A stretch of 62,431 bases of DNA, the filler included, from Asterionella formosa (lineage: Eukaryota), in assembly GCA_002256025.1 (NCBI GenBank). It is 22 parts of 22 records of this genome, joined end to end, with 100 filler letters (N's around TTAATTAATTAA, not from the genome) between each part and the next. Parts side by side here need not be neighbours in the genome. Positions count along the whole stretch, not along the records: positions 50,540 to 52,153 come from NKIB01001737.1; 21 more parts are not named here. One strand, given 5' to 3'. Positions within the stretch are counted from its first letter, which is position 1; each line of letters begins with the position of its first letter. Positions 1,721-60,719 of this stretch are shown one piece after another. Both the position numbers and the translations under genes were made by a program. The notes under the pieces are model-generated. The model saw nothing but the letters and a program-made list of their open reading frames with translations, was not told the origin of the DNA and did not search any database.

Positions 1721-1810
1721 GTATATTTCGTGTCAAGGAAAAGATTTTTTGTGGATCGCACCACAGGATGAGGCCAGCAAAGGATTGTTGGTACATTTAC
1801 CGTTGTGTAC

Positions 1811-2266: not shown

Positions 2267-3080
2267 CACGCCTGAAGTTGTCACTTGCCTGCGAGTTTTT
2301 TAAAATGTGTTCGCGGCTGGGTGGCGCGAAAAGGTTGACCGAACGAGTGGCGCCCCCGGCGTTGCGAGAAGGTCACCCTACGAATGCCATCCCAGCCGGG
2401 CACACAGTAGCTGCCGAGAAGTAATTATTTTTGAGGCAATTGCCGCTCCAGCTATCGTCTTGCCATTCGGGCACTTCTAAGTAATTTTTAGGCTCTAAGT
2501 AATTTCTTAAGTAATTTTTATTTAAGGGCAATATGGGGCACATCGAATTTTTCGGCAATAAAATTGCCGATTTTAGCATGACAACCAGAATATCGGTAAT
2601 ATGCATAGAGATGGTACAACAAGCGTAAAACACATGAGAATGATTGTAACATGCAACATCAATGAAAATTGATCATGATGTTTGGAGCAACCAAAGTATG
2701 AAATGCGATGTAATAAGTAGCATCAAATGAGAAATAGAAAAAATTGTTTTGGGTTAGAAATGAAATAAAAAATAAGAGTTCCAATGGAAACGTATGCATT
2801 GTGAATCATTGTAGTACTTACACAGGCAACATTGACTTTCCATCACCATATACAATCGAAGACCGAAAGGAGAAGAAAAAACCCCAACCCAATGTAGACC
2901 TGCATCGTTATTTAGCGTCAACGGTCTGGTTGTTGCAACCATACGCATCGCTGTAGTAGCCTGACACCAGTAGCAGTATTTCCGCCACAGTCATTCCTCT
3001 CCGCCCAGCAGTACTACTGGGCGGAACTCGTAGGGTGACCTTCTCGCAGCGCCGGGGAGGCCACTCGTACAGTCAACCTA
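2267..3080. mobile_element. Non-autonomous long-TIR DNA element (CACGCC.. end); right TIR interrupted by another element
   Basis: 3010-3080 is an inverted copy of about 2330-2400 (ggttgaccgaacgagtggcgcccccggcg..gaaggtcaccctacga). A second copy of the left end starts at 4237. Confidence 0.7.
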
Positions 3081-3340
3081 CATCTAAGACGCGAAATACG
3101 CCACTTTTCGAAATTTCGTCTACGTATGAGTGTTAATTATGTGGTACTTCACATGCATTAATGCCACTCTTCACGTAAAAAAGATTACTTTTAACGGTTT
3201 CATGTGAAGTTTTAACTGCTTCATGTGAAGTTTTCACAATGAATTTTGAACGCGAGACTGAATTAGTTGATGTTTCAAATAATTCATTTGACTTTTCGAA
3301 ATTTCGTTTACGTACGAGTGTTAATTATGTGGTACTTCAC
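3081..3340 (+). mobile_element. End of CATCTAAG-type TIR element with subterminal repeats, inserted at TA
   Basis: ta|catctaagacgcgaaatacg is near-identical to the sequence at 46569 onward. It contains a 188-bp unit with 21-bp subrepeats. Confidence 0.7.
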
Positions 3341-3440
3341 NNNNNNNNNNNNNNNNNNNNNNNNNNNNNNNNNNNNNNNNNNNNTTAATTAATTAANNNN
3401 NNNNNNNNNNNNNNNNNNNNNNNNNNNNNNNNNNNNNNNN

Positions 3441-4236
3441 AGCTCTACGCTTGCATCAGATCCAGGTGAACCCAAGACCTACAGTGCGGCACTGAAAGCA
3501 GATGACAGAGAAAAATGGATTCCAGCAATCAAAAGTGAAATTAATAATTTTATAAAACGAAAAGTCTGGTCAAAATTCCCAAGATCAGAATTGCATGGAC
3601 GCAAGCCGCTTGGGAGTCGATGGGTCTTCAAGAAAAAGAAGGAACAAGACTTGACTACACGCTATAAGGCATGTGTGGTCGTCAAGGGATATGTTCAAAT
3701 CCCCGGTGTTGATTTTACCGACTCGTTTGCACCTGTGGCTACGGATACAAGTATCAGAGTTGTCTTTGCAATCACCATGCACAAGAAGACATGGACTTTG
3801 GAGGTCATTGACATCGAAGCATCCTTTCTTGAAGGAGACTTAGAGGAAGACATCTACCTTGAATGGCCTGAAGGCGTTGTTGAGTTTGGCTTTGAAGACA
3901 ACAAGGTTGTCTCAGAAAATTGTATTCTTCTAAGTAAAGCCATGTATGGAACGGTGCAGGCTGCGCGACAGTGGTACAAGAAACTTGTGGAGCGTCTGAT
4001 TCTCATTGGAATGAAACAGAGCAAAGTGAATCCATGCATTTTCTTCTTGAAACGTGATTTGAAATTGGTTCTAATTGTTTGTATCTATGTTGATGACTGC
4101 ATTGTTGCAGGAGAACAAGCCGATGTTGACTGGCTTAAGGCTGAAGCCAAGAAGCATTTCACCATAAAGGAACTCATACCAATCAAGAAACATTTAGGAG
4201 TTTGGTATGACTGGGTAGAGGATGCTGAAGGCAATA
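3441..4236 (+). mobile_element. Ty1/Copia reverse transcriptase fragment, interrupted by a TIR element
   Basis: Motifs EPKTY, RWVF, YKACVVVKGYVQIPGVDF, SFAPV, KAMYGTVQAAR and YVDD. Copia similarity ends at 4236, where the CACGCC element begins. Confidence 0.93.
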
Positions 4237-4625
4237 CACGCCCGAGGTGGTCTCTTGCCTGCGAGTATACATGTGTTCGAGGCTGGGTGGCACGAGTAGG
4301 TTGACCGTACGAGTGGCGCCCCCGGCGCTGCAAGAAGGTCACCCTACGAGTGCCATCCCAGTCGAGTACACATGTGTACGAGAAGGCAAGTAGCCGCCGA
4401 GAAGGGTATTGTTGAGGCAATTCCCGCTCTAGCTATCGTCAAGTCATTCGCTTACCTACTGCCCACAAATTTAGCATAAATGTCAATTTTAGCTTACTAT
4501 TGCCCATCATATACAATATATTTTGTATATTTTCTATGTTCACCTCAAAAATTGCCAAAGGTCCGATATTGCCCATCATTAAAATATATTTTGAATATAT
4601 CATATGTTCGCATTTTGGCAAGACA
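4237..4625 (+). mobile_element. Second copy of the CACGCC TIR element left end (right boundary uncertain)
   Basis: ta|cacgcccgaggtggtctcttgcctgcgag aligns with 2267 onward for about 200 bp. Confidence 0.7.
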
Positions 4626-5220
4626 ACAGACGACAATTGCCCCTTGGTTTTCCAGCCCTGGGATTGCCGAAATCGGCAAGGGGTCTACTTAAAGAAACTA
4701 TTTTATATACTATTCAGATTCTAATAATTTATATCTAGAATTCACATCGTTTTTGTTCGTCTCCTGAAAAGTGGACTCCGGCAATTCACCTTTCACCATG
4801 CCAATCGTCGTCCATCATGACCGGTTTGAAGCGAAATCAGTTCCGCGATGACGCCAGTAGCGATTCTTTGCCTAACGGATGCGGTTGATTGTTGGATCGC
4901 TTGTCTTCTCGAGGTATTCATGTAGTCGCATCGTCCATATTTCGTCGGACGAACGATGATATCGATACATCTGATGTTGGTGGCAAGTTTTTGCTCCGGT
5001 CATGTATGTAATGATGCTTAACGGATATTCTACTGGTACCGGCAGTCATCTAGTCTACANNNNNNNNNNNNNNNNNNNNNNNNNNNNNNNNNNNNNNNNN
5101 NNNTTAATTAATTAANNNNNNNNNNNNNNNNNNNNNNNNNNNNNNNNNNNNNNNNNNNNACTTGTCAGTCTCATAATATACAATTATTTGCAGAGTCATC
5201 GTTGAGACACTTTAGTAATC

Positions 5221-6777
5221 ATGTTGGCAGACCAAGGAATGCTAACTCCTTATGAAACGGAAATTGAGCAGCTAAACCTCAACAATCTAATTCGAGAGTT
5301 AGAAGCTATCAATGCTAACAATGGAGGTAAAATGCCATATGGCACTATTTCTAAAGTGGTGGAGGCTAGGAAAAGATTGCTCCCATGGCTATCAATTAGC
5401 TAACCATATCAAGTACCAGATGAAGAAGAACAAGAAATTATTTAATGAGATTTACTCTAGTACTACTACATCGAGCAGCACATTCTAAGCTGCTATGGGT
5501 AATGCCGCCTCATCCTCTCTGACTTTTGCTTCCCTTTGTTCCACAATTTCAACCAGCGACTTTAATGTTCCTAGGAACCTTGCCCCCGCCATCCCCACCA
5601 ATTACGATTTCTCACCAGTAGCACCAGCAACCACTCCAGCAGTTGATTTATTTTATTTGTTTCAAATACAGCAGGACGAAGAGGAGGGTGGTGGTGAGAT
5701 ATCATTTGATAGCTAGCAGTTAAATGAGCTGACAAGCGCAGAGCAGAATGACACACACAATATTAAACATACCTGTGAGAATTTTGGTGAGGGCGAGATG
5801 AGAACAGCAGATGCAGAAGGCAGTGTAAGTCAACAAACAACCAGCACAATAACCGGAGGAAGACCAAAGGGTGCCACTGCAGCTGCTGTAAGAGATGTTG
5901 GGCAACGACATGAAATTGTCATGAGGGAAATATGTGATTTGTATGCTGTTGCTCAAGAAAATTTCAAAGATGCCAAGAGGCGAGTAAAAAATGGAACACT
6001 TGTGATGATCATAACAGAAGCAAAGGCAAGGAATGGGCTGCCAGGAGAAACTTTCATGAATTTGGTCAAGTTACCTCCAACAGGACTGCAATTGCCAACC
6101 GAGGATGGGGCCCACTCAACTATAATGTTCTCAATCACTCTGAAATCCAACTTACAAAGACAACATTGAAAAATGGCACCCAAAACAACAACACTGGAAA
6201 TGCTACTTCTCCCCAAGAATTAAATCTGTCAGATGGATATGCTGGCACTCTAGTTGACCATGTTGTTGAATACAGGAATCGTGAAGATGCTCGAAATGGA
6301 ATCGACCTTGATGCCCAAGCCCGTCAACGCAAGGAAACTGCCCAAGTCCATCTCGACTCCCACAAGAAAAGAATCTCTGCCGGCCTATTGGCATACGCTG
6401 GCATTCATGCTCTTGTACCAAATGTGCTTGCATCTGCACTGGTGAGAAATAGAAAGGCAGAGGAACTGGTTACTGAGCGTCAAAACAAAAGGCAGCATGA
6501 ATTTATGAAGCTACGGAACAAATTTATGGCTCAACGCGCAGCCAACAAGCCTGAGCATATGCTGTTGTGCGATGGTTTCGACGCAACGGAGATTTCCCGG
6601 TACCACAAACAAGACAAGCCCTACTTACCCGCTTGGGAGAGACCTCGGTGAAACCCAAGGAAATGGGTTACTTGTGTATCCAATGTGGCCGGTATGGATT
6701 TGTAATTCCTCGCACAATCAAAAGGAAGTAAGTATTTCGCAATAGCCAATCAGTACCTGTAAATTACTTCGCGCACT
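5221..6777 (+). mobile_element. Degenerate, probably internally deleted pogo/Tc1-like DNA transposon
   Basis: Broken ORFs with GGRPKGAT..RVKNGTL..IITEAK (N-terminal part) and ELNLSDGYAG (C-terminal part) resemble diatom pogo-like transposases. No DDE core is visible. The contig ends in ..cgcgcact, compatible with a CAGT-type TIR. Confidence 0.45.
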
Positions 6778-6877
6778 NNNNNNNNNNNNNNNNNNNNNNN
6801 NNNNNNNNNNNNNNNNNNNNNTTAATTAATTAANNNNNNNNNNNNNNNNNNNNNNNNNNNNNNNNNNNNNNNNNNNN

Positions 6878-7713: not shown

Positions 7714-8192
7714 CCCCATAATCTCGATGCACCAAAATGAAGGTGACTGCATGACGCAGTCTCAACATCCTCAATTTATACTCTTCTGGGGACGTACAAG
7801 GAAACTCAACAGCCAGCAGCCCTGTGTGAGCACTGGGACATTCGATCTTGGCACCAAAACCATTGCCTTGAGGACCCATTTGAAACTCATTGCAGATATT
7901 GGTTTGTGGCGCCTTCAAGTAGCAGTTTATGTCTACATCCTCGTCAAAGAGTCCAACAGCAGAAACTGCTGGATGCACATGGAGATGACGACCGACGTGT
8001 TTATTCTTAAGGCCATTTCGAAGGAGCACACAAGGAGTGTTGAGAGAACCAGGTGCAACAACAACGCACCGCTTTGCACTAATTTTCAATTGATAACTCC
8101 CAAACTTGGCAATTACACCAGTGGCCCGCTTACCTCTTGACGAACCAGTAGACTCCATCAATACTTTGTGAACAGCACAATTCTCAATAATA
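7714..8192 (-). pseudogene. Inverted partial copy of the long-chain alcohol oxidase gene (matches about 16205-16680)
   Basis: IIENCAVHKVLMESTGSSRGKRATGVIAK...EEYKLRMLRLRHA is nearly identical to the middle of ORF 15014-17197. The 5' part is missing and the 3' end is cut by the Copia LTR. Confidence 0.9.
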
Positions 8193-8294
8193 TAGGCTAC
8201 TATACTGGTAGAATATACTCGGCAGTTGACATTTACAAACTTATTCTGTTCCCCTCTCATTTCCAAATTGCACATAGATAGTGCATTTAAAATT

Positions 8295-15013: not shown

Positions 15014-17197
15014 ATGGGTCGGTTCTCACGTCGTCAATTGTCGGTGTTGAGCGGGATTGTGGATGCATTGCTTCCTTCCATCGCCGCACCTCCTTCGACC
15101 TTAGCGAGAGCTAAAGATGAACAAGAATGCGAGGAAATCCGCAAGTACTGCGAATACCGTTTATCCTCCGACCCCGACTTCATGGCAGCACTCGAAACAA
15201 GTATCTTTGACAAGGTTTCAGGGCAGGAAAGCCAATTGCTGCGAATGTTGCTCTCAATCCTATCCACTATGCTTGGAACTATGCTGATCTTTGGTACTCT
15301 CCAACCACTTTGGACCTTTAAATCATTTGCAGAGTATTCAACAGACGACCAAAGCGCTCTCTTACAGTCACTCAAGGCAAGTACATATCAAGAGAAGAGA
15401 AAGATATTCAATGGCCTCAAGCGCTTGATTTGTGGCCTTGCCTACTCGTTTGTGCCAGGCGACGGATCAGGTAGGGGAAATCCGTTTTGGTCTGCAATCG
15501 GATATCCCGGTCCTCCGCAACGAAATCTGTCCAAGGAAGAGGACGAGGATCTTATGAAAGAAGGAGCGAAGATTGATTTTCGATCGATGGCTGGCGTTCT
15601 CCTGGACGTTCAGGGCGACATGGAGTTGCAGTTTGATGTTGTTATTGTTGGGTCTGGTTGTGGAGGAGGAGTTGCTGCTGCAACTCTAGCCAAAGCAGAC
15701 TACTCTGTCATTGTTCTTGAAAAGGGCCCTTACCTATCACCCTCTGAGATTACCAACCTGGAAGCAGAGTCCTTGGATCGTATGTTTGAATCCCACGGAA
15801 TATTGACGTCAAGTGATGGCAATGTCATGATGCTGGCTGGATCCACCCTTGGCGGGGGATCCGCAATCAATTGGAGTTGTGGCTTGGAGACACCTGAACA
15901 TGTACGACGAGAGTGGATCGAGAAATATGGCTTGGTTCAGTTTGGTGATGGTTATGATGAGCACATGACAGCAATCAAGGAACAAGTTGGATGTGACGAC
16001 AAATCGGGAGTTAAACATAACAAGCTGAATCAACACTTGATTGATTCATGCAAGACTATGGGTTACGATTGTGATTCGGCTGCACTAGTCATGAGAAATA
16101 GTGACAAGGATGCTACAGGATTCCTCTGTTTTGGAGATCGATACGGCAACAAGAATGATGGTTTGTCAACGTACCTGAAAGACGCGGTTGATCATGGTGC
16201 CAAGATAATTGAGAATTGTGCTGTTCACAAAGTATTGATGGAGTCTACTGGTTCGTCAAGAGGTAAGCGGGCCACTGGTGTAATTGCCAAGGTTGGGAGT
16301 TATCAATTGACAATCAATGCAAAGCGGTGCGTTGTTGTTGCAGCTGGTTCTCTCAATACTCCTTGTGTGCTCCTTCGAAGTGGCCTAGAGAATAAGCACG
16401 TCGGCCGTCATCTCCATGTGCATCCTGTGATCATTGCAGTTGGGCTCTTTGACAAAGAAGCAGATATCAACTGCTACTTGAAGGCGCCAATGACAACTGT
16501 CTGCAATGAGTTTCAAATGGGTCCTCAAGGCAATGGATATGGTCCCAAGATCGAATGCCCTTCCACTCACACTGGACTAATGGGTGCCGCCTTGCCTTTC
16601 ACGTCCCCAGAAGAATATAAGTTGAGGATGTTGAGATTGCGACATGCACTACCATATATTTTGCTAATGAGAGATTCTAGTGAAGGTCGGGTCCGTGTTG
16701 GCCCAGATGGGTTCAGTCCACAAATCGACTACGTCCTCAACGACGCCGACAAGGAAAGTTTTCTTCATTCTCTGAAGGGTGTCGTGAAGTTGCTGGTGGC
16801 AACTGGAGCCAATTTGGTATTGACAGGGCACTGTCAAGACCCTTCTCTACAATTAGGTGACGAAGTTCCTCGCACCAAGGAGTCCATTGAAGCGAACCCT
16901 CAAATCCAGGCCTATCTTGACTCAATCACGGATCGTGGAATGAAGGAACACGAGATGGGAGTCTATGTTGCTCATCAAATGGGCTCCTGTCGCATGAGTA
17001 CGTCGCCTGCTGGTGGCGTTGTCGACGCTTCAGGCGAAGCTTGGGAATGCAACGACTTGTTCCTTGTGGATACAAGCGTTTTTCCGACTGCTTCTGGTGC
17101 CAACCCCATGTTGACTGTTCTAGCTGTTTCTCATATGCTCAGTACAAGACTGGCGACACGTTTGAAGAATGAAGATGCAGAAACACAGACGTTATGA
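15014..17197 (+). CDS. Long-chain fatty alcohol oxidase (GMC oxidoreductase)
   Basis: Intronless 727 aa. N-terminal NPFWSAIGYPG, Rossmann DVVIVGSGCGGGV, GSTLGGGSAINW, VGRHLHVHP, AHQMGSCRM and FPTASGANPMLT. Confidence 0.93.
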   Translation: MGRFSRRQLSVLSGIVDALLPSIAAPPSTLARAKDEQECEEIRKYCEYRLSSDPDFMAALETSIFDKVSGQESQLLRMLLSILSTMLGTMLIFGTLQPLWTFKSFAEYSTDDQSALLQSLKASTYQEKRKIFNGLKRLICGLAYSFVPGDGSGRGNPFWSAIGYPGPPQRNLSKEEDEDLMKEGAKIDFRSMAGVLLDVQGDMELQFDVVIVGSGCGGGVAAATLAKADYSVIVLEKGPYLSPSEITNLEAESLDRMFESHGILTSSDGNVMMLAGSTLGGGSAINWSCGLETPEHVRREWIEKYGLVQFGDGYDEHMTAIKEQVGCDDKSGVKHNKLNQHLIDSCKTMGYDCDSAALVMRNSDKDATGFLCFGDRYGNKNDGLSTYLKDAVDHGAKIIENCAVHKVLMESTGSSRGKRATGVIAKVGSYQLTINAKRCVVVAAGSLNTPCVLLRSGLENKHVGRHLHVHPVIIAVGLFDKEADINCYLKAPMTTVCNEFQMGPQGNGYGPKIECPSTHTGLMGAALPFTSPEEYKLRMLRLRHALPYILLMRDSSEGRVRVGPDGFSPQIDYVLNDADKESFLHSLKGVVKLLVATGANLVLTGHCQDPSLQLGDEVPRTKESIEANPQIQAYLDSITDRGMKEHEMGVYVAHQMGSCRMSTSPAGGVVDASGEAWECNDLFLVDTSVFPTASGANPMLTVLAVSHMLSTRLATRLKNEDAETQTL

Positions 17198-28293: not shown

Positions 28294-29059
28294 AGAGAAT
28301 AATTTTTTATTCTTGTGGACCATCCATGGACCATTACACAAGAATTCAGAGCTGACTTGTTCCTGGTACACTAGTTTTGAAGGGGCACCCTAGTTCATAG
28401 CTATACAGTTAAAGATGCACTAACTTAATTACATTTGTACAGTGTCAAGCGGCAGATGCGTCGCTGCCAATTCAATTGCTATCCTACTAGTATTATTGTG
28501 TCCATGTGGCTTGCATGCATTCAATGTTCACATATACGCTGCTGGTGTGGGGTGATCACATCATCTATCTATTTTTGGTAGACATGTGACAAGGTACTAT
28601 AGTCTAGCTATATGCATCCTTGCTTGAACAAACCATCTGCATCATTCAGTAGCTATAGGTATACCAGGCACAGCATCAACTTTTCCCAATGATTTGGATT
28701 CAAAGTAGTACCAGTCAATGTTGTCACCACTTTTGTATACTTTTGGCCAAACCACATTCCAATTTTCAATGTGAGTTTCGGTTTAATGGAAAAATGCGTT
28801 TTTTTTTAATGAGTTGCACACTAGAAGCGAACATAAACTCTGTTTTCGTAATTAAAAAAAAAGAATCAAAAAAACCGATTCGACATGGTACATCTGCCCA
28901 CCGGGACATTGGCTACCTGGTGGTACCAGGTACCGGTATGTATGATCGTAACAAATGGTTGATGATACTGAACGAGATTGGCCATATTGCAATTGCAAAA
29001 ATATAAACAGTGACGAGGAGGGGTACCGGTAGGGTCTAACATACCGGTATGTGTGTGTT

Positions 29060-29155
29060 GTACCAGGTACCAGGTACCAGGTACTGGTGGTAGACGACTA
29101 CTTGGAGTACCAGGTACCGTACCGTTCCCCTGGTACCTGGTACCAGTACCGGTAC
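29060..29155. repeat. Dense CCWGGTACC array upstream of the 14-3-3 gene
   Basis: gtaccaggtaccaggtaccaggtactgg...gtaccaggtaccgtacc...cctggtacctggtaccagtaccggtac. Confidence 0.85.
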
Positions 29156-29434
29156 TGTAACAGAAAGCCATCGACAACTGTTCGTGCAAGAAGGATACTA
29201 CCTGGTACCGTAATCCTTACCGTTATGCGGTTTATACTTAGGTATACACACAAAGGTGGTGCGGGAAACCAGCTGCACCGCAGAACAACCGTTACCATGT
29301 ACCGGTACATCATGATGCATCCGGGCAGCAGAGGTGATTTAGAACTTAGAAGTGCACAATTTAGATTGCCAACAGTCATAGTCACCAAACCCCGAGTACC
29401 GGTACCTTAAAACCCGTTTCAACAAAGCAACATC

Positions 29435-31094: not shown

Positions 31095-31904
31095 CTATTC
31101 TACCTTTGCGGCACCTTTCTCCTTTTTAATTTCACCGCAGTCCTTAATAATCAGCTTTTTCGACGGCTGTCCCACTCCCGAACCACATGCTTCCATTGCC
31201 TTGATAACTTCAAAACCTTCTTCGACACGTCCAAACACAACATGCTTGTTGTTCAACCAGTGCGCCGCTGCCGTTGTAATAAAAAACTGTGATCCATTAG
31301 TATTGGGCCCCGAATTGGCCATGGACAAAAGTCCAGGGCTGGTATGATTGATATGACCAATCTCCCATTCATCATCAAATTTATTTCCATAAATGGATTC
31401 ACCACCAGTACCATTGCCTCTAGTAAAGTCTCCTCCTTGACACATGAAACTCGGAATAACCCGATGAAAGTGACTACCCTTGAAATAGAGGGGTTTGCCA
31501 CTAGTGGGTCCAATGCCCTTTTCCCCAGTGCAGAGGCAGCGGAAGTTTTCGCATGTTTTGGGAGTCACAGTCGTAAATAATTCCATAACGATGCGCCCTG
31601 CTGCATTATCGCCAATGACGATATCAAAGTACACGCGAGGGTTGTCTTCCTTGGTAGCATCGGCCAGTTCAACTAGTTTGGTATCTGGTTTGCCTCCATC
31701 CAAACCCAAGAACCCAAGCACAATCAATAAAGTGACTGCACCAAGAATGACTTGTTCGATTCTTGACAATCCACTCCAAAAGGCATTCATGTTGTGGAGA
31801 ATTCCCTCGACGAAACCTAACTCATCACTAGCAGCAACAAACGTGGGAACTACGACAAACAGAGCCACAACGAGACAAGAGCGCATACTGCAGTTGCGAA
31901 ACAT
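31095..31904 (-). CDS. Cyclophilin-type PPIase with N-terminal signal peptide and transmembrane segment
   Basis: [39 protein letters not shown] and [10 protein letters not shown], plus two hydrophobic N-terminal stretches. Confidence 0.92.
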
Positions 31905-32645
31905 TGGATAGAAGAGTGCCTTTGGTTGATTGTCTGAATAAGCGAGCGAGGAACACGAGGCTGTTGAAGCAATGAACTAACAAATGGATTTGTTGTGTAC
32001 AAGTGCGTTTCGGTCGTCGTTAGTAATAACAACGGAAAACTAGAAAACTAATTTCAGCAATGACAATCAAAACCAAAAAAAACTGTCAACATACCCGCTG
32101 TTTGCATGACATCCGACCTTGTTACCCTGGTACGACGTGCATACCCCTGTCCTCGGCTGTCGTGATAATGATCCTAACAACATAATGAAAACAGCCATCA
32201 GCATCAGCACAGGCTTTCACGATGCTGACCATAGTCAGCTTAACGGTTAATTGTTGCCGTTATAAAAATTGCTCTCCATATGTATTGGGTATGTACCAAC
32301 AACCATTATACCGGTATATACCAGGTACCTGGTACCTGGTGCCGGTACCTGGTATTGCATTTGTTACATGCATGGCCTGTAACTTTCACAAGCAACAACG
32401 TTATCTAAACTTGTTACCTGTTAGTGATTCTATCGGCTTGCTTCGTAGAATGCAAACCTACTGCCCCTCCAAATTATTTAGTAGTACAGAATACGGGAAA
32501 TGACGATTACATACCGGTAACATGATACAAAAGACCTTAAAATATTACTAGTACCGGTATATGGCTGATGTTTGATTGTTCAGCCTTCAGCTAGGAAACA
32601 CCAGCCCAGTCGTAAGCATAATATACCAGGTAACCTGGTACCTGG

Positions 32646-33281
32646 TGAAGTATCTAACTAGAAGTAGTAGTATTTGTTGAATATATGAGCTTATTTGTTA
32701 ATCCTTGTGTGTAACTCGTTCTCCAAGTCGACACCAAAGTATACAATGAGGGTTAGTCGAGTTCTCTCATTATTGAGTTCTTATACATACATGATATAAC
32801 ACTAACCCTATATACATCTGTATTGATGCGCAAGATCGCTCACTCTCCCACACCAAGGGAAAACCTTTTACCTTTGAAAAGGTTTGATGTAATGGATATT
32901 AATTCAGTCCGTAGTATGCATAGTTTGTTGAAAAGTAACTGGACCATTGGCATATACTTGAATAAATAGAATAAGGACCTCGTCCATGGTTATCCAAGGT
33001 AGTAGGATTATCCGATAGGATTAAAACCTCATCAACAACCTTGTAATCGCAAGAACGACGACGGAAAGTATCACGACGTAGTCATTTGTCAATTATCACT
33101 TATCGACATTGATATCCCAATATCAATTACATATCTATAATCAAATCATGTTGTAAAACCCATGTTCCTGGTGAAAATACACAATGTACTATAAATAGTA
33201 GCTCGAGCTGCATATGATGCAGCAAACTGGTATCCACAATATTCTGAACTTGAAATTCCTTGATTGGAGGATGAGCCTTTA
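32646..33281 (-). mobile_element. Degenerate Ty3/Gypsy 3' end: integrase tail, polypurine tract and 3' LTR (32646-32842)
   Basis: The reverse complement aligns with about 51150-51786 (integrase end, GGGAGAG tract, TGAG...TTCA LTR). Confidence 0.88.
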
Positions 33282-33599: not shown

Positions 33600-34895
33600 A
33601 ACCACTTCACTGAGATACCACATCAGTTCGGTAGTACTTAAGAACCGACAAAGGATGCTCTCCACTACATATTCCAGAACCAAGGTTTCTTTCCAATCCA
33701 TTGCACAGGATCCGCATCCTTCTCCGCCCTGCCACCCTGAAATTCAATGGCCCAGTCAGTGTAGTAGAGCAACCTTCCAAAGCAGATCATTGTCTCCGAC
33801 TAAAGATATATTGTCGTGGAGCATGGATTAAAAACCGGAACCTCCCTCTAACCAAATTCACGGAGTCCTCCAAAGCACCAATCAACCACTTGTTTGGTTG
33901 CCACAACTACTGATAGGAGACAAAGTGTCCTGAAAAGGGAAAAATTGTTAGTAGTGGAAAATTTTATCACAAGGAAAATCCGTTTATACAAATGGTCAAA
34001 TGTTTATTTTGCAATAAAAGTCGACGAAGGCAAAAAGCTCCTTTGATTGTATTGTCCCTTTGATACACAGATGAATGAGGGAATGAACAATGCAGTATCG
34101 CGACGATATCCAAAGAACAAAGTGTTTGCAGGATCTGGTGGACCAAAATACAGGGTTAGTTGCATCAGTTGCTGGACAACAAACACAAGGAGTCACAAAG
34201 TACAAGAAAGATGTTTACAAACAATGTGCAATGGAAATGTCTCAACTGCAAGAATCATTTTGGAGACAAAAGGACTAGCAATGGAACACAGTGCAGGCTG
34301 CAAAGCGCAATTCAATGGAAAAGGAAAAGAAATAAGAAAATATTTGCTGCATGATTTGAAAATGTCAAACAAGAAAGGCACAACAATAAAACTGTAAAGA
34401 CTTAAAGCTTTGGGGTGGCGTTGTTAGAAGACCAAGTTCAGGAGGCCACAACGAAGAACAATGCAAATGCACAATGCAAACATTGTGGCTGGAATTATCA
34501 ACAGAGAAAAAGCAGCACCCTCTTTCCATTCTTTCAAGGCAAAGCGAATAATAGTAGTACTGGTACTCATATGGTACTAGCATATACACTACCAGCCTAC
34601 ACCCCGAAAATAATACATGTGCATCCAATGTGGTTGGCGTAAGTTTGCAATGCCCTGCAGATCATTCAATCAAATGGAGGTTAATTCACGTTGACCAATC
34701 AATCATATTATATATGTGGAAGCGGACACTTACAATGGAATTTTTTGGACAGGAGATTTTAGAACTAAAACTTCTGGAGCACGACTACTATTCCGATGAT
34801 GATGTTTCGGCTCATAGTCATTCTGATCCCGATATTTTGCTTGGTGACCGTAAAAAAGCCATTGGCTGGGTCTTGAGGCGATTTAGATACATAAG
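33600..34895 (+). mobile_element. Degenerate Mutator-like transposase C-terminal region and element end
   Basis: Fragments PRFLSNPLHRIR, HLFGCHNY and DTQMNEGMNNAVSRRYPKNK resemble the TQxNESxN..PK motif of Mutator-like transposases. The 3' non-coding end recurs inverted at 46055-46400. Confidence 0.6.
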
Positions 34896-35421
34896 AACAT
34901 TTTAAATAGCATCAGTATGTCAACAATGACAATCAACCTAGCCAACAACTTTTAGACACACCATTTAGAAGTTTTTGAGTGACTATATAGACCAGCAGAN
35001 NNNNNNNNNNNNNNNNNNNNNNNNNNNNNNNNNNNNNNNNNNNTTAATTAATTAANNNNNNNNNNNNNNNNNNNNNNNNNNNNNNNNNNNNNNNNNNNNG
35101 TGATCATAATGGTATATAAAATTATATACAATTATAGATAAAAATTTAAGTACTGCTGTGACCCATTACCGGCAAATTTTGTCCACATTAAAGGGTTCGT
35201 ATCTCAGTACCTCGACCTTCAATGAGAATACCGACAGATCCACAATCTGCTGACTCCTTTGGTTAACAAGACCTGGAAGTTTGATTCTCGCAAGGTATGG
35301 AAAAGGTGTAGTCGAACTAATCAAACGAATAGGAGAACTCAGTGGGTCACAGCAGTTCTTTACTGGTACTAGGAAGCAGCTGCAGTAATTTGGCTGAAAT
35401 GGATGAGGTGGTGACACAGGA

Positions 35422-36817: not shown

Positions 36818-38277
36818 AGAAAGGTATAACGAAAAGTGAAATAGACCCAATGTTGTTTATCTACCGTAACAACGATGGACAAATTGAAGGGCTGTTGGCA
36901 AACTACGTGGATGATGGAATTATTTGTGGTACCAGGAATGCAGTCGACTATATGAAAAATATGATCAAGGAGGATTTTAATATCACGGAACAAGGTCCCC
37001 TACGAAAACACTTAGGTGTGGAATATATGCGCAAGCATGACAAATTTGGAGAATACTGGGAAGTACAGCTGAAGAAATTTCGTACTGAAATGCTACTGGA
37101 ATATGAAATGCTTACTGGTAAGAAGATAAAGTCTTATGCGACACCAGGAGCACCAGGAAAAACATTAGGAGCCAATAATGGAGAAACTATTATGGAGGCG
37201 GAATATCGCAAGATTGTTGGGAAACTATTATGGTCTACTAAGAAAGATTCCCCGGACTGTGCCAATGCAGTACGTGAATTATCTTCGTATTTAAGCTGTC
37301 CAGGCGAAGAACACTGGGATGGAATTTCACGAGTTGTTGGATTCTTATCAAGCAAATTGGACAGAGTTCTCAAGATTCGAAAACCTAAGGAATTGCGGGT
37401 TATTGCTTATGTTGATAGTGACTGGGCTGCTAATAAGGTGAGCCGGAAAAGTACTACGGGTTTTCTGGTTACCATTGGTGGTGCGTTGATCAGTTGGCAA
37501 TCAAAGGGCAAGTCATCCGTTACGCTATCAAGCACAGAAGCAGAATACGTTGCAATGTCGCAATGTGCTCAAGAGATTAAATTTATTGCAATGTTACTCA
37601 ACGAAGTGACAGGTGGCAAAAATATCCTACCAAGCATTTTACATGAGGATAATACAGGTGCAATATTCACAGCGAAGAATCAACAACTTGGAACAAGAAC
37701 AAAACACATTGATATTAAGTTTCATCATGTCAAGAACATGATAGATGAGGGTGAGTTGCATATTGTTTTTCTAAGATCAGAAAACAATCCAGCAGACATT
37801 TTGACGAAGAATGTCAAAGAGCAGATTTTTACAAGGTTATCTGGACCCAAGCTGAGTGGTACAATTTTAGAACTTCTTGAACATGGTAACGAGGAGGATG
37901 TCAAGAATATAGCATCAATGGCTATAATGAGTCACAAGGACTGTGGACTCGACTATAGTCCAATGAGTCAAATGGTGCGTTCCCATGTCAAGAAGCTTGC
38001 TAACGAGATTGATGTCTTAGATCAATCAGAAGAAGGTTTACATCAATGAAAAGGGAACACGAAGAACAGGTTCTCGAAGTGTGATGAATGGGATTGAAAC
38101 TTAGTTTTAGTTTAATCTTATAATTAAGAAACAGTGAGAATTGACAGAGTAAGGTCAATAGCGAAAACTAGCACGAAGGCTAGCAGCAGAAAGAAGATAA
38201 CAATACTAGTGGTATAACAGGTAAGTTTTACGTAAGAGGAGCCCGTCAGACGGGAAGGAGTACGAGACCTTTCAACA
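36818..38277 (+). mobile_element. Copia RT-RNase H, polypurine tract and 3' LTR (37899-38277)
   Basis: YVDD, AYVDSDWA, LSSTEAEY, EDNTGAI, RTKHIDIKFH and ADILTK. The tract GAGGAGGA is followed by TGTCAA...TCAACA. Confidence 0.95.
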
Positions 38278-50539: not shown

Positions 50540-51786
50540 GATACTTGGCGTATTGCTATTCCTACATCATTATTGGATCCTATTATTAATTGGTATCATC
50601 AGATGTTAGCTCATGTGGGTATGACAAGATTAAATGCTACAATTGCTACACATTTTTATCACCCTATATTAAAAACAAGAGTGGAACATATTGTAAGAGT
50701 ATGTGAAGCATGTCAACGTACAAAATTACCTGGTACTGGTTTTGGTGAACTTCCACCCAGGAATGCATTATTATTACCATGGTCAGAAGTCGCAGTAGAT
50801 CTAATTGGTCCATGGAAGATAACAGTGGCTGCTCAAACGATTGAATTTCGTGCTCTAACTTGTATTGACACAGTCACCAATTTAGCAGAAATTTCACGTA
50901 TCATCAATAAAACATCAGAATATATTGCAATGAAATTTGAAAATGATTGGTTAGCCAGATATCCCCGTCCAGAACGTTGTATACATGACAATGGAGGTGA
51001 ATTTACTGGTGCTCCTTTCTTACACATGTTAGTATTGAATGGAATCAAAGATGTGACTACCACAGTAAAGAATCCACAAGCAAATGCTATCTGTGAACGT
51101 TTCCATCAATCTATCAGCAATAGTCTACGAGTTATGTTAAAGGCTCATCCTCCAATCAATGAATTTCAAGCCCAAAATATTGTGGATACATGTTTTGCAG
51201 CTGCGTCATATGCAGCTCGAGCTACTATTCATAGTATATTACGTATTTCACCAGGAGCATGGGTTTTCCAACGTGATATGATATTAAATATTCCTTTGAT
51301 TACAGATTTACAATTAATACATCAACGTCGACAGGTGATAATTGACGAACGTTTACGTCGTGCAAATTTCCGTCGTCGATCTTATGATTACAAAGTGGGT
51401 GACGAGATTTTAATATTATTGGATAATCCTACTACTTTGGATGATCGTGGACGAGGTCCTTATACTATTATTCAAGTACATGCCAATGGTACAGTTACTT
51501 TTCAACGCACTATGCATATTACCGAACGAATTAATATTCGTCGTATCAAACCTTTTCATAGGTAAAAGGTTTTCCCTCAAGTGTGGGAGAGTGAGCAATC
51601 CTGCACATCGATACAGATATATATAGAGTTGGGGTTATGTCAAATATATCGGAATTCAATAATGAGAGAACTCGACTAACACCCATTCTATACTTTGATG
51701 TCAGTTCAGGAAATGAGTTATACATAAGGATTAATTAATAAGCTCATATATTCAACAAATACTACTACTTCTAGTTAGATACTTCA
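50540..51786 (+). mobile_element. Ty3/Gypsy integrase (intact to 51565), polypurine tract and 195-bp 3' LTR (51592-51786)
   Basis: HHCC zinc finger (YH..AH..CEACQ), DDE core (VDLIGPW, HDNGGEF, NAICERFH) and GPY module. GGGAGAG|TGAG...TTCA. Confidence 0.95.
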
Positions 51787-52253
51787 CCTGGTACCAGATA
51801 ATACCGGTAGTCCTTCACCACGACCATCTCAGCACTTTTTCAACTCGGCCGCTCTTCGTGGATTATTTTGATGGTGGCATACTCTAAAGCAATGCCGCAG
51901 TTTATACAATAGGAACACGTCGAAAAAGAAAGGAACGCAAAGGATAGTGCGATTTAGGCAGTCCATGTATGGTTCTGCGAGGTTTCGCTGACATAACATG
52001 TTGCGATCAACAATCCAAAGCTACAGCAGCAAAGGTGTTGTGCTTCCACGAAGGTCAGCACTTTGCAAACGCAGATTGGCCACCAAGAAAGAAGATACGT
52101 GCGGGCAACTCTTTGCAGAGGAGCCGTCTCTCGCGTCCCAGCCTCTTGCTTGGNNNNNNNNNNNNNNNNNNNNNNNNNNNNNNNNNNNNNNNNNNNNTTA
52201 ATTAATTAANNNNNNNNNNNNNNNNNNNNNNNNNNNNNNNNNNNNNNNNNNNN

Positions 52254-54250: not shown

Positions 54251-55680
54251 GTTGCATTGATGTTACGTGTAATTAGCATAGATCACATACATATTATCAT
54301 GTAATATCTAATCGATTGCATTTGTAACACCATTAATAACGAATCACATTTAGTATACACTCATCATATATATATCAATTAGTTTCAAATCAATAGATCA
54401 TACGATATAAGTATGATCAATACAGCACTCTCACTCTTATTATCAACAAACGTCTTGGTATTCGATCTAAAGATAGTAATCGTGAGATCAAATCCGTTAT
54501 TCATTCAGTCTAACCTTTGGAATGCTAATATCAAATAGAATTTTTAGCTTTCGATCTAACGTTCGTTACTACTGATCTAACTAATTGCTCTTATTGATCA
54601 AACCTATTATCATGTTCGATCAATGATGAACGCAAATCTAATTGAATGGATTGCTATTTAATACTCAAATATTCTACTTCTGGTCACCCATACTTTCCAC
54701 TGTGCATCCTCTATCAGAATGAGCACACAGTGGTCTTCTATACCTTAATTTTCACTTCCGGTAGCTATGTTTATATCATTGCCTTTTCAAAATGAAATAA
54801 GAGAGTAAACAAATTTGATGATGCTTTATTGTTGATGATGCTTTATTCCAACCTCTACCATTGCGAATGGCAGCAAGTCACATTCTCCAATGTTCTTGTA
54901 CGACTTTCCTGTAAGAGATAATAACAACAATGTTAGCAAAACTGTTGCATCAAGTAAGCAAGGCATCTAAACGAAGATATGTGCAACGAAACGATCACAT
55001 AAACAATCCATCACTCAAATTTCCGCATGAGCAGGCAATGTGCATATAACTTACCTGTGCTCTCATGGTTTATTGTTGCTTCCGTTAAGAATGGTAGCAA
55101 GCCACATCCTCCAAGATTCCTGTATGATTTTGAGGAGATAATATCAATGTTAGCAAAAGAGTTGCAAACGATTAATGCATCTCCAGCCACAGATGTGCCA
55201 ACAACTGATGACATAAACAATGTATATAACTTCACGTTCCAATGTCGAAATCATAATAAATGGACACAGACACTACAAAGCCTCGGCAGCATTGTGCACA
55301 AACATATTAAGTGCGGTTTCTTACCTCGTATTTAGGTTGATTTTTATCGTTTGTCCTGAGGATTATTATGATATAATGCCGAAGTACTCCGATTATAACA
55401 TAGGTAGTGAATGATAAAATAACATTTCTATATGATCTAAGAGACCAACTCCCTTTTTATTTTTGACATGCCAAAAATAGCTAATATCAGACTTTTCTCT
55501 TTTATTATTGTTTCATTCTTTGATTTTAAAGCATCAGCGGCCCGTTTAACTTGACTCCTGTACATTGTTATCGTCGTGTCNNNNNNNNNNNNNNNNNNNN
55601 NNNNNNNNNNNNNNNNNNNNNNNNTTAATTAATTAANNNNNNNNNNNNNNNNNNNNNNNNNNNNNNNNNNNNNNNNNNNN

Positions 55681-57293
55681 AAACGCCAGAAACCAAATGA
55701 TGAGCAGGATGAAGCCTCGTCCTTAATATTGCTTATAAAGGAGAAGCTCAACGTTCATTTCAAGCGCTTGGAGGCGGATCAGCAAGACCGAAGAATTCCA
55801 AAGACAATGCATATCTACATGATTGATCCGAAAAAAATTCCTTCTATTCCTACTTTACCTCCTTCTGACCCTACCTTACCTCTTTCTGATCCTACTTTAC
55901 CCGCTTTTTCCCCAACTGATAGTTACTGGATTGAAAATGTCCAACAGGTGCGGTTCGACGACAGTGTTAGTAGGGGAATCTTATATCGCCCTAAAATTGT
56001 GAATGAAATGATGAAAGTTGTTGAAGATGCCTTCAAGAAAGAGCGTCGGACTGGAATCATGATCAAAGGACCGCATGGAATTGGCAAGTCGCACTCACTT
56101 GTCAACTTGGTTCGTAACCTGCAATATAACAGCAGCTGCAAGTACCTCGTAACTTTCATTCCAGACTGTCAAGAATGGAATGATGTTAACGAGTTGTACA
56201 CTGCAATCTGTAGATCATTTGGTACTTCCTTACCGGCTCTCAAGTGGAAGATCTGTTCAAATGATATCGAAAATTCAAGAGATCTGCAAACTTTTGTCAA
56301 TGCCATTGACTTGATTCTTCAAGATATGAACAAGAAATGGGTCCTAGTCTTCGATCAGATCAACAGATTGTTTGCTCGACCAGAGCTAAACAAATCTGTT
56401 GATCTGGGCACTCTTCCCTTTTCTTTTCGTCTCATCAACAGCATAATGAAGGGAGACCGCATTGTCTCCATCATTTCAGCTTCCGCAAACAACGAGATAG
56501 CCTACAGGGAAAGTCATCGAGGGTTTGTGGAGTATGATCACCCTTGCCAAATGAATTTGGCAGAAATAGAGCTTGCTTTTAATGAAGTGGCTATACGGAA
56601 TAACGGCAAAGAAATATTAAAGGTGACTGGTGGGGTGCCCTTACAGGTGAGGAATCTGATTTCCTTCAACTTTTCAATTGCCAATTATGAAAAGGGTGAA
56701 TTGTGCTCAATTCTATTTTCTCTTGGAAAATTGCATGACACGAAAACGGAATTGGAGTATAAGGGTATCACAGCATCAGCAGTTGGTTGCATTTTGTCAA
56801 ATACAGGCCATGCCATGTATTATGACAGAAAGTATTCAATTCCTGGCAAGAGGGAGGAGTTCACTCACTACGAGCCATTGTATCCTTTGGTGTTGGTAGC
56901 AGATCAAACCTTCTTTTGGGAGGACATACTGGAATATGTCGAAACACACGAGGCATCACTTTTGTTAGTCTGTGCCAATCTTAGTACAACAAATGACACT
57001 CGTGGTCGGATTTTTGAATTTCTTGTGATCAAGCACTGTTCAACCAATGCAAATGTTACTTTTTTGAAAGGATTTTCGGCATTGAAGAAATGCAATCTCA
57101 TTGAAACTTTTCCCCCAAAGAGTACCTTTCCCTCCAATGTGTTGCCAGAAATCATGAACGAAAATGGAATGTATGTTCCCCGAAACTCCAATTTTCCTGC
57201 AATTGATCTCATCTGGAAGTGTGGCGATAGTGTGTGTGGTGTCCAGGTACATGTTTCCAAACATCACAATGTACTGAAAAAGTTTACAGAAAT
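55681..57293 (+). CDS. Crinkler/RHS-type P-loop NTPase fused to a PD-(D/E)XK nuclease-like domain (partial at both ends)
   Basis: The frame is open across the whole contig. Walker A GPHGIGKS, Walker B-like VLVFDQIN, TGGVP, then RGRIFEFLV and YVPRNSNFPAIDLIW..GVQVHVS. Confidence 0.75.
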
Positions 57294-57393
57294 NNNNNNN
57301 NNNNNNNNNNNNNNNNNNNNNNNNNNNNNNNNNNNNNTTAATTAATTAANNNNNNNNNNNNNNNNNNNNNNNNNNNNNNNNNNNNNNNNNNNN

Positions 57394-59006
57394 AAAAGTT
57401 AGCCCAGATCCAGAATACAAATCCATCACTTTCACAAAAGCAACCAAAGACAAATTCAACCCTGGAAAACTTACTGACCAAAACACAGTTTCCCCACCAA
57501 ACTTTGCAAGGCATGTCGACGACAAAATCTATGCAGCAGCATCCATTGATCACATACTCCGGGCTACCAGAGCATCTATCACAGCAAACAATTTGGTACT
57601 TGGTCTTCCGGATCACACCTTGAAACCTGATGCCAAAGACATGGATAAACTCCACGAAACAGAGATTTCCTACCGCAGAAACATCCTGGGAAAAATTGTT
57701 AACACAAGGACAATGTCAGTGAGTCTACCCATTGACAAAAGGGTTGCAATACACACAGCTCTAACCACTACATGGGGCCCCCAAAGAAAAAGCTTCACAA
57801 TCCTGGAAGCCAGCCAGTTGGCAGGCACCCTTGTCAATGCAACTCAATGTTGCCGATGGGGAGCATTCCTGTTCATTGCATTCATGAGCACACTCCACAA
57901 TACAATAAGCGAGCATTTCAAACACATTCTTACCTCAGATGAGTACAACACACTTCTGCAGGAAAAAGACCAATCGTGGATCTCCACAGAGGCCAACTCA
58001 CAAGATTGGCTTGACCGAGTAGCAACCTCAAAATTCAACTGATTTCATGCACGAATCGCAAAAATCCTGTGGAACAGCAAAGAAAAAACCTTCATAAGTG
58101 TACCCATGCGCGATGAATTGACACACCTTACCAATATATTCACCGCACAGTGTCCCTTTAAATGGGAGGCACCAATTGGCCATTTTATCCCAAGATGCGC
58201 TGACTATGACTCCCTCGGCGATGCGTGCTTGAGAGGAGGAGGAGGTTTCTCCATTTCCTTGAACTTTTGGTGGCAGCTCACCTGGCCATTATCACTCCAG
58301 CTTTGCACACTCTTGAACCTAAAGAAAAAGGATCCAGCCCTGCTATCCATTAACTTGTTTGAGTATGTGAGCATAATTGTTAATCTAGCAGCGTGCATTG
58401 AAGCGATTGGACAAATACACAACAAGAACTCACCACCAGACCCTGTAGTCCAAATATGGACAGACAACACAACGGCATCTGCATGGACCAGAAAAATGTC
58501 AAGTGGTAGAGGAACCACAAACGAAAGCAAGTCCTTGGCACGACTATTTTGTTACATCCTCATGCACTGGCAAATTGGTGTATCAAGCTCCTATATCAAG
58601 GGAGAGGAAAATGTTTTAGCTGACAAAATCTCACGAACACTTGATCACACCCATTTTCAACTTGACTCACATTTTCATGTTGCTACCCAATCCCTCAAAC
58701 AACAGATTCCCGAGATCCAAGGCTTGAGGTGCTTCCGACCGAGTCCCGAGTTACTCAAGCTGCTGAACTCCGCGCTCTCTACTGGATCTGTAATTATTCC
58801 CACAACCAAAATTCGGCTAGGACAGCTCAGTCACATGTAAAACATTACATGAAATATTGCAGACAAAAACAGATTGACCCTTACCTGACAACATACTCCC
58901 AACGCCAACGCAACATCCAGATGGCTCTCTATGCCCAACACCTTGCCCTCGGAAACACAATCCACGGCACATTGGTGAAACGAGACACAATTGACGGATA
59001 CACCCG
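57394..59006 (+). mobile_element. DIRS-type (tyrosine recombinase) retrotransposon fragment, copy 1 with premature stop at 58040
   Basis: RT HVDD, LGKIVNT; DIRS-type RNase H DACLRGGGG, SINLFEY, WTDNTTA and GEENVLADKISR. An overlapping ORF resembles the N-terminal helical domain of a tyrosine recombinase. Confidence 0.85.
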
Positions 59007-59106
59007 NNNNNNNNNNNNNNNNNNNNNNNNNNNNNNNNNNNNNNNNNNNNTTAATTAATTAANNNNNNNNNNNNNNNNNNNNNNNNNNNNNNNNNNNNNN
59101 NNNNNN

Positions 59107-60719
59107 AAAAGTTAGCCCAGATCCAGAATACAAATCCATCACTTTCACAAAAGCAACCAAAGACAAATTCAACCCTGGAAAACTTACTGACCAAAACACA
59201 GTTTCCCCACCAAACTTTGCCATGCATGTCGACGACAAAATCTATGCAGCAGCATCCATTGATCACATACTCCGGGCTACCAGAGCATCTATCACAGCAA
59301 ACAATTTGGTACTTGGTCTTCCGGATCACACCTTGAAACCTGATGCCACAGACATGGATAAACTCCACGAAACAGAGATTTCCTACCGCAGAAACATCCT
59401 GGGAAAAATTGTTAACACAAGGACAATGTCAGTGAGTCTACCCATTGACAAAAGGGTTGCAATACACACAGCTCTAACCACTACATGGGGCCCCCAAAGA
59501 AAAAGCTTCACAATCCTGGAAGCCAGCCAGTTGGCAGGCACCCTTGTCAATGCAACTCAATGTTGCCGATGGGGAGCATTCCTGTTCATTGCATTCATGA
59601 GCACACTCCACAATACAATAAGCAAGCATTTCAAACACATTCTTACCTCAGATGAGTACAACACACTTCTGCAGGAAAAAGACCAATCGTGGATCTCCAC
59701 AGAGGCCAACTCACAAGATTGGCTTGACCGAGTAGCAACCTCAAAATTCAAATGGTTTCATGCACGAATCGCAAAAATCCTGTGGAACAGCAAAGAAAAA
59801 ACCTTCATAAGTGTACCCATGCGCGATGAATTGACACACCTTACCAGTATATTCACCGCACAGTGTCCCTTTAAATGGGAGGCACCAATTGGCCATCTTA
59901 TCCCAAGATGCGCTGACTATGACTCCCTCGGCGATGCGTGCTTGAGAGGAGGAGGAGGTTTCTCCATTCCCTTGAACTTTTGGTGGCAGCTCACCTGGCC
60001 ATTATCACTCCAGCTTCGCACACTCTTGAACCTAAAGAAAAAGGATCCAGCCCTGCTATCCATTAACTTGTTTGAGTATGTGAGCATAATTGTTAATCTA
60101 GCAGCGTGCATTGAAGCGATTGGACAAATACACAACAAGAACTCACCACCAGACCCTGTAGTCCAAATATGGACAGACAACACAACGGCATCTGCATGGA
60201 CCAGAAAAATGTCAAGTGGTAGAGGAACCACAAACGAAAGCAAGTCCTTGGCACGACTATTTTGTTACATCCTCATGCACTGGCAAATTGGTGTATCAAG
60301 CTCCTATATCAAGGGAGAGGAAAATGTTTTAGCTGACAAAATCTCACGAACACTTGATCACACCCATTTTCAACTTGACTCACATTTTCATGTTGCTACC
60401 CAATCCCTCAAACAACAGATTCCCGAGATCCAAGGCTTGAGGTGCTTCCGACCGAGTCCCGAGTTACTCAAGCTGCTGAACTCCGCGCTCTCTACTGGAT
60501 CTGTAATTATTCCCACAACCAAAATTCGGCTAGGACAGCTCAGTCACATGTAAAACATTACATGAAATATTGCAGACAAAAACAGATTGACCCTTACCTG
60601 ACAACATACTCCCAACGCCAACGCAACATCCAGATGGCTCTCTATGCCCAACACCTTGCCCTCGGAAACACAATCCACGGCACATTGGTGAAACGAGACA
60701 CAATTGACGGATACACCCG
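59107..60719 (+). mobile_element. DIRS-type retrotransposon fragment, copy 2 (RT-RNase H open to 60553; recombinase-like ORF follows)
   Basis: Same motifs as copy 1, with no stop in RT-RNase H and identical contig boundaries. Confidence 0.88.

Follow-up and report, generated by a model that had tools for sequence, protein, structure and literature searches.

Insertions of the long terminal repeat (LTR) retrotransposons Ty3 of yeast and Tf1 of fission yeast are steered to positions upstream of genes with near-nucleotide precision, Ty3 being positioned by TFIIIB/TFIIIC and Tf1 by Sap1. Site-specific non-LTR retrotransposons (R2 and those that target microsatellites) use an endonuclease and target-primed reverse transcription and have no integrase. 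In the sections available of one review, most LTR retrotransposons and retroviruses are described as choosing their targets loosely, and sequence-specific integration is called exclusive to the Drosophila errantiviruses and their derivatives, with the palindromic targets TATA, CGCG and ATAT (PMC5408687). For one of them, ZAM, an available excerpt describes an integrase that itself binds and nicks its CGCGCg target (PMC2527525). Symmetry around the duplicated bases is said, in the parts available, to reflect a two-fold symmetric intasome (PMC5408687; PMC6911290). In diatoms, the Ty3/Gypsy elements known as GyDi (Maumus et al., 2009) show heterogeneous target duplications, and the available excerpt of their description reports no target word (PMC2806351). 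Here we analyse a stretch of 62,431 nucleotides from the diatom Asterionella formosa (assembly GCA_002256025.1; the whole stretch, filler included, is called the window), in which two fragments of a Ty3/Gypsy element, copies A and B, abut the word CCWGGTACC. Altogether, we consider it highly probable that this lineage integrates site-specifically into the word.

The errantiviruses (the gypsy, ZAM and Idefix groups) resemble this lineage in being of Ty3/Gypsy type and in integrating into short palindromic words, as far as the available text describes them (PMC5408687). Their targets in insects are 4-6 bp long, however, whereas the putative target here spans ~13 bp, holds far more information and belongs to a diatom host; unlike theirs, it is also a clustered, gene-proximal host motif, and the likeness concerns function only. 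Ty3 and Tf1 are alike in outcome, with insertions in front of genes that spare coding DNA, but it is host factors that place them, whereas a DNA word at the joint plays no such part, and Tf1 has a chromodomain; in the diatom family, joining takes place at the dyad of a palindrome, and a chromodomain is absent. The weak palindromic consensus of retroviral and LTR-element insertions has the same symmetry but consists of weak statistical biases, whereas in the diatom family five of the first seven half-site positions are invariant in 9/9 junctions. GyDi elements share the diatom host and the Ty3/Gypsy pol, a comparison made by partial description only. In the literature, full-text searches returned no description of the motif as an integration target (the matches listed looked, by title, like primer or cloning-site uses), and searches on related diatom genera with retrotransposons, or on a genome of the host group, gave nothing relevant among the matches listed.

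The window holds two copies of the LTR end (2 in a search at up to 3 mismatches, 2 by BLAST), one in each element fragment, with the following features.

50540..51565, plus strand: copy A, integrase part of Ty3/Gypsy pol (H2C2, weak core, GPY, stop at 51563-51565), 5'-truncated.
51566..51591, plus strand: spacer from the pol stop to the LTR, whose last bases are the purine run GGGAGAG, similar to a polypurine tract.
51592..51786, plus strand: copy A 3' LTR, 195 bp, subfamily alpha, TGAGC...CTTCA.
51787..51797, plus strand: host flank of A, CCTGGTACCAG, right half of the putative target GGTA-CCWGG-TACC.
51787-51791, plus strand: CCTGG, presumed duplicated target at A.
51802..51809, no strand assigned: TACCGGTA, second over-represented host palindrome, 15 bp from junction A.
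32842-32646, minus strand: copy B 3' LTR, 197 bp, subfamily beta.
32843..33281, minus strand: copy B, remains of the C-terminal part of the integrase, decayed by frameshifts and in-frame stops; filler from 33282.
32635..32645, minus strand: host flank of B, CCAGGTACCAG, in a motif cluster ~670 bp upstream of a cyclophilin open reading frame (ORF; 31095-31976, minus).

A preliminary description of this DNA had the motif abutting both Gypsy LTR ends, and this is what we find: the ends read ...GATACTTCA, followed by CCTGGTACCAG at A (51787, plus strand) and by CCAGGTACCAG at B (32645, minus strand). On the plus strand, junction A (51786/51787) passes from ...TCTAGTTAGATACTTCA into CCTGGTACCAGATAATACCGGTAG (in a shorter view, from ...TAGATACTTCA into CCTGGTACCAGATAAT); on the minus strand, junction B (32646/32645) passes from ...TCTAGTTAGATACTTCA into CCAGGTACCAGGTTACCTGG (in a shorter view, from ...TAGATACTTCA into CCAGGTACCAGGTTAC). 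As had been noted, 10 of the first 11 flanking bases are the same at A and B, and further out the flanks are unrelated. The homology between the copies extends over 51138-51797 and 33281-32635 with 82% identity (BLAST), and their LTRs agree in 169 of 199 aligned columns (85% identity), the last ~50 bp being identical. The same description counted two Gypsy insertions: both junctions are real, but neither copy is a whole element and both are decayed 3' fragments. Copy A starts at a filler edge, directly after a truncated Copia reverse transcriptase, and the visible end of copy B, at 33281, is a filler edge too; no Gypsy domains were found upstream of B in the ORFs between 33522 and 36495. The filler (44 N, TTAATTAATTAA, 44 N) recurs about every 1714 bp over 1621-6877 and 33282-60819 and produces false repeat matches and false element "ends", of which 33281 is an example.

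49872-50439: truncated Copia reverse transcriptase (RVT_2), followed by filler (50440-50539) and then copy A.

Since no 5' LTR was found in the window (mismatch search and BLAST), the limit of the LTR cannot be read from the window alone. A 20-mer probe taken entirely from within the LTR end retrieved 19 metagenome loci (with handles L001 to L019) and no match in viral contigs or prokaryote genome contigs. After the LTR end, 15 of the 19 loci pass from TTCA directly into CTTTGAATTCAAAAAGAGTC, one stops after one base and three enter other DNA. In L018, the CTTTGAATTCAAAAAGAGTC continuation leads, 40 nt on, to an open frame of at least 187 aa, which gave no Pfam match but aligns, at E 4e-11 and 5e-9, to the N-terminal portions of two related Gypsy polyproteins; the continuation is thus the element's own leader and gag. 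We also aligned the contigs of four sequencing runs (X1, X2, X3 and X4) on 51200-52100 and read their loose ends, as far as these were listed. The top loose end, at 51787 in all four runs, is again the leader continuation (96 contigs in X1, 27 in X3, 1 in X4 and 1 in X2). Summed contig depth drops from millions to 568 (X1) just past the motif at A, so that the flank of A is not part of the repeat. The start of the LTR is marked by four loci (L004, L011, L015 and L016) in which TGAGC directly follows host DNA.

The LTR therefore extends from TGAGC to CTTCA and the motif lies outside it, as had been proposed, with one base ambiguous on each side (host flanks and leader alike have a C after TTCA, and a G stands before TGAGC in both contexts). 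It could be argued that CCWGGTACCA(G) is the real LTR end, in an LTR still ending in CA, because A and B stay homologous for 11 bp beyond TTCA with a single mismatch, a divergence close to that of the LTR itself. Yet 5' LTRs pass to leader and gag directly after TTCA(C) in 15/19 loci and in all four runs without any motif, and at the host-to-LTR junctions the word stands in mirror image before the LTR start, so that we regard this alternative as extremely improbable.

A and B also differ in their closest relatives. For copy A, identity is 99% with L016 and 94-95% with L002 and L012; for copy B, it is 98-99% with L015, L008, L006, L007 and L001. Both are 3' fragments lying in inverted orientation in one transposon-rich 20-kb stretch, which would suit a single ancestral insertion that was duplicated along with its flank. 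Each, however, is far closer to copies elsewhere (98-99%) than to the other (82%), which places A and B in two subfamilies, and their flanks share nothing past the word. We therefore attach next to no probability to a single duplicated insertion, in keeping with the independence of the two copies assumed from the start.

Seven of the 19 loci provide new junctions. Three run from the LTR into host DNA, with CCAAGTAAC (L003), CCAGGTACC (L017) and CCAGGTACT (L019); four run from host DNA into the LTR and, read outward, give CCAAGTTGA (L004), CCAGGTAAC (L011), CCTGGTACC (L015) and CCTTGTACC (L016). All three new 3' junctions are CCWGGTAC-like (0, 1 and 2 mismatches), and three of the four new 5' junctions end in the mirror image of the word, the fourth (L004) being poor. 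Over the nine junctions, A and B included, the half-site CCWGGTACC is matched at C 9/9, C 9/9, W 9/9, G 6/9, G 9/9, T 9/9, A 8/9, C 6/9 and C 7/9, with 0, 0, 2, 0 and 1 mismatches at the 3' junctions and 4, 1, 0 and 1 at the 5' junctions. The test on new junctions is a fair one, because the probe excluded the flank and the motif had been fixed beforehand. Flank enrichment beyond background, on which the targeting proposal depended, is thereby found: six of the seven new junctions differ from CCWGGTACC at no more than 2 positions, for which the background rate is 6.1e-3 per oriented position in host intergenic DNA (2.4e-3 within 1 mismatch, 1.45e-3 for exact matches). By chance, three of three new 3' junctions within 2 mismatches would be expected with a probability of ~2e-7, and at least three of four 5' junctions within 1 mismatch with ~5e-8; with CCWGGTACC at a frequency of 5.2e-4 per oriented position in the whole window and 1.45e-3 in host intergenic DNA, two independent random insertions would both abut the word with a chance of ~1e-6. 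A second LTR-like repeat served as a small control: its left ends (3079 and 46567) border on unrelated, motif-free sequence (0/2). The two copies of this control repeat (3079-3340 and 46567-46828) are 98.9% identical and lie in two Copia-bearing regions.

The runs contain many more such junctions. The LTR end followed by CCTGGTACC(AG) was found in 34+27 = 61 contigs of X1 and 17+15 = 32 of X3 (contigs, not loci, among the loose ends listed), which then diverge (agreement 0.42-0.45), often with more GGTACC units; in one X3 contig the LTR end is followed by CCTGGTACC, TGGTACTCCGAGTACCAG and an LTR start, with 27 bases of motif between the two LTRs. L003, L017 and L019 match no more than the terminal 22-56 bp of the LTR and yet have the same flank, which indicates that several related families, alike in their terminus, use one and the same site. 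In L016, the 5' flank is 95% identical to a repeat of the window (35100-35369) that reads GTACTAGG where L016 has GTACCTGGTACAAGG and then the LTR; this Gypsy copy thus landed in another repeat, at a half-site. The LTR bodies of L019 and L003 are homologous to window segments 45682-46383 and 34598-34918, repeats that lie beside copies A and B. A third window junction from these related repeats was considered and set aside, as the window copies are without the shared LTR terminus, and a search of the window for further junction traces (ACTTCACCWGG, CCWGGTGAGC) gave none above chance besides A and B.

That there is no integration preference at all, the pattern arising by chance, by survival of copies only in harmless arrays or by assembly artefacts, would be helped by the small number of readable junctions and by the fact that contigs of high-copy repeats can be chimeric, nine of the loci being collapsed integrase-LTR-gag contigs. 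But selection has no way of pinning the joint to one particular nucleotide of the word, the chance values given above are very low for 3' and 5' junctions alike, and the same junction recurs in the window, in L003, L017 and L019 and in runs of different studies; we judge such an explanation very unlikely.

The 5' flanks end in ...GGTACCWGG and the 3' flanks begin with CCWGGTACC..., and from this we infer that the target before insertion was the palindrome GGTA-CCWGG-TACC (GGTACCWGGTACC), of which CCWGG would be duplicated. CCWGG-like sequence stands in the 5' flanks of 4/4 loci and in the 3' flanks of 5/5. The duplication is deduced from pooled copies, since no single copy shows both flanks. 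In L017, a 29-nt remnant of the LTR end lies between two CCAGG, which is compatible with a duplication, though weakly.

What kind of word is this in the host? The claim that it is an iterated intergenic motif holds: CCWGGTACC has 63 sites on both strands of the window against 0.40 expected, and the full 13-mer has 30 both-strand matches. A second palindrome, TACCGGTA, has 27 sites against 0.38 expected, and the two co-occur in short clusters of GGTA/TACC half-sites, with arrays in a 7-bp register, GGTACCW. TACCGGTA clusters with GGTACC arrays are seen, for example, at 28931-29404, 32309-32559, 40623-40746 and 51802-51809. Two clusters stand out in the gene-bearing part.

32309..32559, no strand assigned: GGTACC and TACCGGTA words clustered in front of the cyclophilin gene, the array where B landed.
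28922..29404, no strand assigned: largest unoccupied cluster, 16 GGTACC or TACCGGTA words, upstream of a 14-3-3 gene.

Within the gene-bearing part (6900-32645) there are 46 GGTACC or TACCGGTA sites: 28 lie at most 600 bp upstream of the 5' end of an ORF, 10 lie farther out on the 5' side, 8 fall in ORFs and none in 3' spacers. Thus, all 38 intergenic sites (38/38) are on the 5' side of one of seven genes, and each of the seven has at least one within 600 bp. By this placement the word looks like a promoter-proximal host element, and the TACC(W)GGTA half-site pairs are possibly a candidate, undescribed diatom promoter element. For single-strand hairpins in the arrays, folding z-scores are modest (-1.5 to -3.0). 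The best named relatives of the 14-3-3 gene are in diatoms (84-91% identity), and the stretch was found in 18 of the 24 listed runs, from 11 studies, mostly labelled as freshwater, riverine, lake or algal metagenomes.

Because the family is extremely abundant and varied, and because L017 carries its LTR-end remnant between two CCAGG, one might see in the arrays scars or by-products of the element itself and not an independent host feature. However, duplication of CCWGG would give CCWGG...CCWGG and not the 7-bp register GGTACCW; traces of the LTR are absent from most arrays of the window; a 5-bp duplication could not produce the companion word TACCGGTA; and the arrays stand upstream of single-copy genes. 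An origin of the arrays as scars is, in our view, highly improbable.

By domain content the element is a chromodomain-less Ty3/Gypsy element of diatoms, and copies A and B, on the same basis, are not chromoviruses. The integrase of copy A matches Pfam Integrase_H2C2 (E 2e-10); its rve core is weak (E 0.014, below the cut-off) and its GPY module was read directly. The frame ends 33 residues after GPY and 26 nt before LTR A, and a search for a chromodomain in this integrase gave no match at E up to 1, in agreement with the earlier remark that the integrase ends right after GPY. Its relatives number 504 proteins at E 1e-10 (longer-protein search setting); the 120 of these that were listed are polyproteins with RVT_1, RT_RNaseH and Integrase_H2C2, and none of the 120 carries the PF00385 chromodomain. 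Among the matches listed, the nearest relatives that bear a name belong to the diatoms Nitzschia and Amphora. In 10/10 relatives scanned, the order is reverse transcriptase, RNase H, integrase H2C2, with a protease match before the reverse transcriptase in five; the pol order is read from these relatives, as the reverse transcriptase and RNase H of the A/B family itself are outside the window. CCWGG is also the site of the Dcm methylase, and a methyltransferase-like DNA-reader domain between RNase H and integrase was considered and dropped, the gap there (116-138 residues in 10/10 relatives) being too short.

A terminal repeat is present at both element ends, after the pol stop (window and nine loci) and before leader and gag (15 loci); this evidence is pooled over loci, no single uncollapsed copy with both LTRs having been seen. 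The LTR is bounded by TGA...TCA, the purine run GGGAGAG precedes it, and the same spacer between pol and LTR stands before the LTR in copy B and in nine metagenome loci. The leader after the 5' LTR starts CTTTGAATTC..., and no TGG-type primer-binding site was found in the leader CTTTGAATTCAAAAAGAGTC (L001-L018), no tRNA gene of the window being available for comparison. Contigs running from the integrase end through one LTR into leader and gag were seen at nine loci (L001, L002, L005, L006, L007, L009, L010, L012 and L014); they are expected from assembly collapse of two LTRs, and also from tandem elements that share an LTR or from one-LTR circles. In run X1, 31,951 contig pieces align on 51200-52100; the depth figures of the runs are not taken as copy numbers.

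The preliminary description had proposed that the family targets CCWGGTACC arrays, either directly or by tethering, and the findings on boundary, independence and enrichment all support this. In the mechanism we propose, A and B are independent, now dead, insertions of a very abundant lineage without a chromodomain and with LTRs of ~195 bp. Its integration machinery would attach both LTR termini (TGAGC... and ...CTTCA) at a fixed point within GGTA-CCWGG-TACC, and two strand transfers, 5 bp apart around the central W, would leave CCWGG on both sides of the element. The palindrome would be a host word that occurs, with TACCGGTA, in short clusters 5' of genes, and since these clusters lie on the 5' side, new copies would land in promoter-proximal spacers and not in coding DNA. 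It would be the integrase-LTR complex that recognises the word, a property shown in vitro for the integrase of the Drosophila element ZAM. We lean slightly towards this account as a whole, with A and B as independent dead insertions, a lineage that joins the palindrome at a fixed position and an integrase-LTR complex that reads the word.

Four considerations make us prefer direct readout. At the dyad, the site of the joint, a bound dimer of a host protein would be an obstacle. The 13-bp word (5 duplicated bases and 4 on each side) would fit the footprint of an intasome, which touches a stretch of about 13 bp. All nine junctions (9/9) are at the odd-spaced CCWGG type and none at TACCGGTA, which is about equally common. 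Finally, the ZAM integrase provides a precedent. More boldly, and only tentatively, we suggest that the integrase alone reads the 13-bp palindrome GGTACCWGGTACC and inserts on its dyad, which would make this the first strictly sequence-specific LTR retrotransposon outside the insect errantiviruses and the word an undescribed promoter-proximal host cis-element.

Alternatively, targeting would be real, but a host protein on the TACC(W)GGTA clusters would tether or position the integrase, in the manner of Ty3 with TFIIIB or Tf1 with Sap1. This is suggested by the resemblance of the word to a host cis-element (5' of 7/7 genes, alongside TACCGGTA), and the imperfect sites of L004, L016 and L003 would be easier to understand if a neighbouring bound factor counted; such sites are in or near motif-rich DNA wherever this is visible. 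A dimer bound on the dyad would, however, be expected to block access to the joint; none of the nine junctions falls at TACCGGTA, about as common a word; and the short integrase tail after GPY has no recognisable tethering module. We consider tethering a serious alternative, if a rather unlikely one, and direct readout is preferred, although nothing here separates the two.

Several points weigh against the account that we favour. The junction test is small, with nine readable junction sequences in all, of which L004 is a clear miss (4 mismatches) and L003 and L016 are imperfect, and the background rate was drawn from 19 kb of one window. The run counts are of contigs and not of loci, among the loose ends listed, and a reference that carries the motif favours the alignment of similar flanks, so that these contigs show that many such junctions exist but not their share. 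CCWGG was never seen on both sides of one copy, and with one base ambiguous on each side a 3-bp CWG duplication is equally compatible. Moreover, the promoter-proximal position of the word was read from seven genes defined by their ORFs.

Other repeats were seen in the window. Two 1613-bp blocks in tandem (57394-59006 and 59107-60719), 99.4% identical and carrying ORFs, have a period equal to that of the filler; the blocks (57394-60719) may be a candidate tandem duplication whose repeat period coincides with the filler period. An ORF beside them (55633-57345) matches AAA_22. Two Copia-type segments (RVT_2; 36818-38277 and 41968-43427), 99% identical, inverted and 3.7 kb apart, are recent copies in the same transposable-element nest. 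The gene-bearing part holds a 450-bp inverted repeat of 87% identity (7748-8197 and 16199-16648).

If the proposed reading is true, strict sequence specificity arose outside the insect errantiviruses, with a much longer word, and the family would offer a tractable system for how an integrase reads target DNA; the integrase is also suggested as a candidate enzyme for site-directed insertion in algae. For the host, the results point to an unrecognised promoter-proximal motif in diatoms. Targeting of this motif would explain how a very abundant element coexists with a gene-dense host, its copies lying in gene-upstream spacers, and would mean that the element and the regulatory code of its host are coupled.

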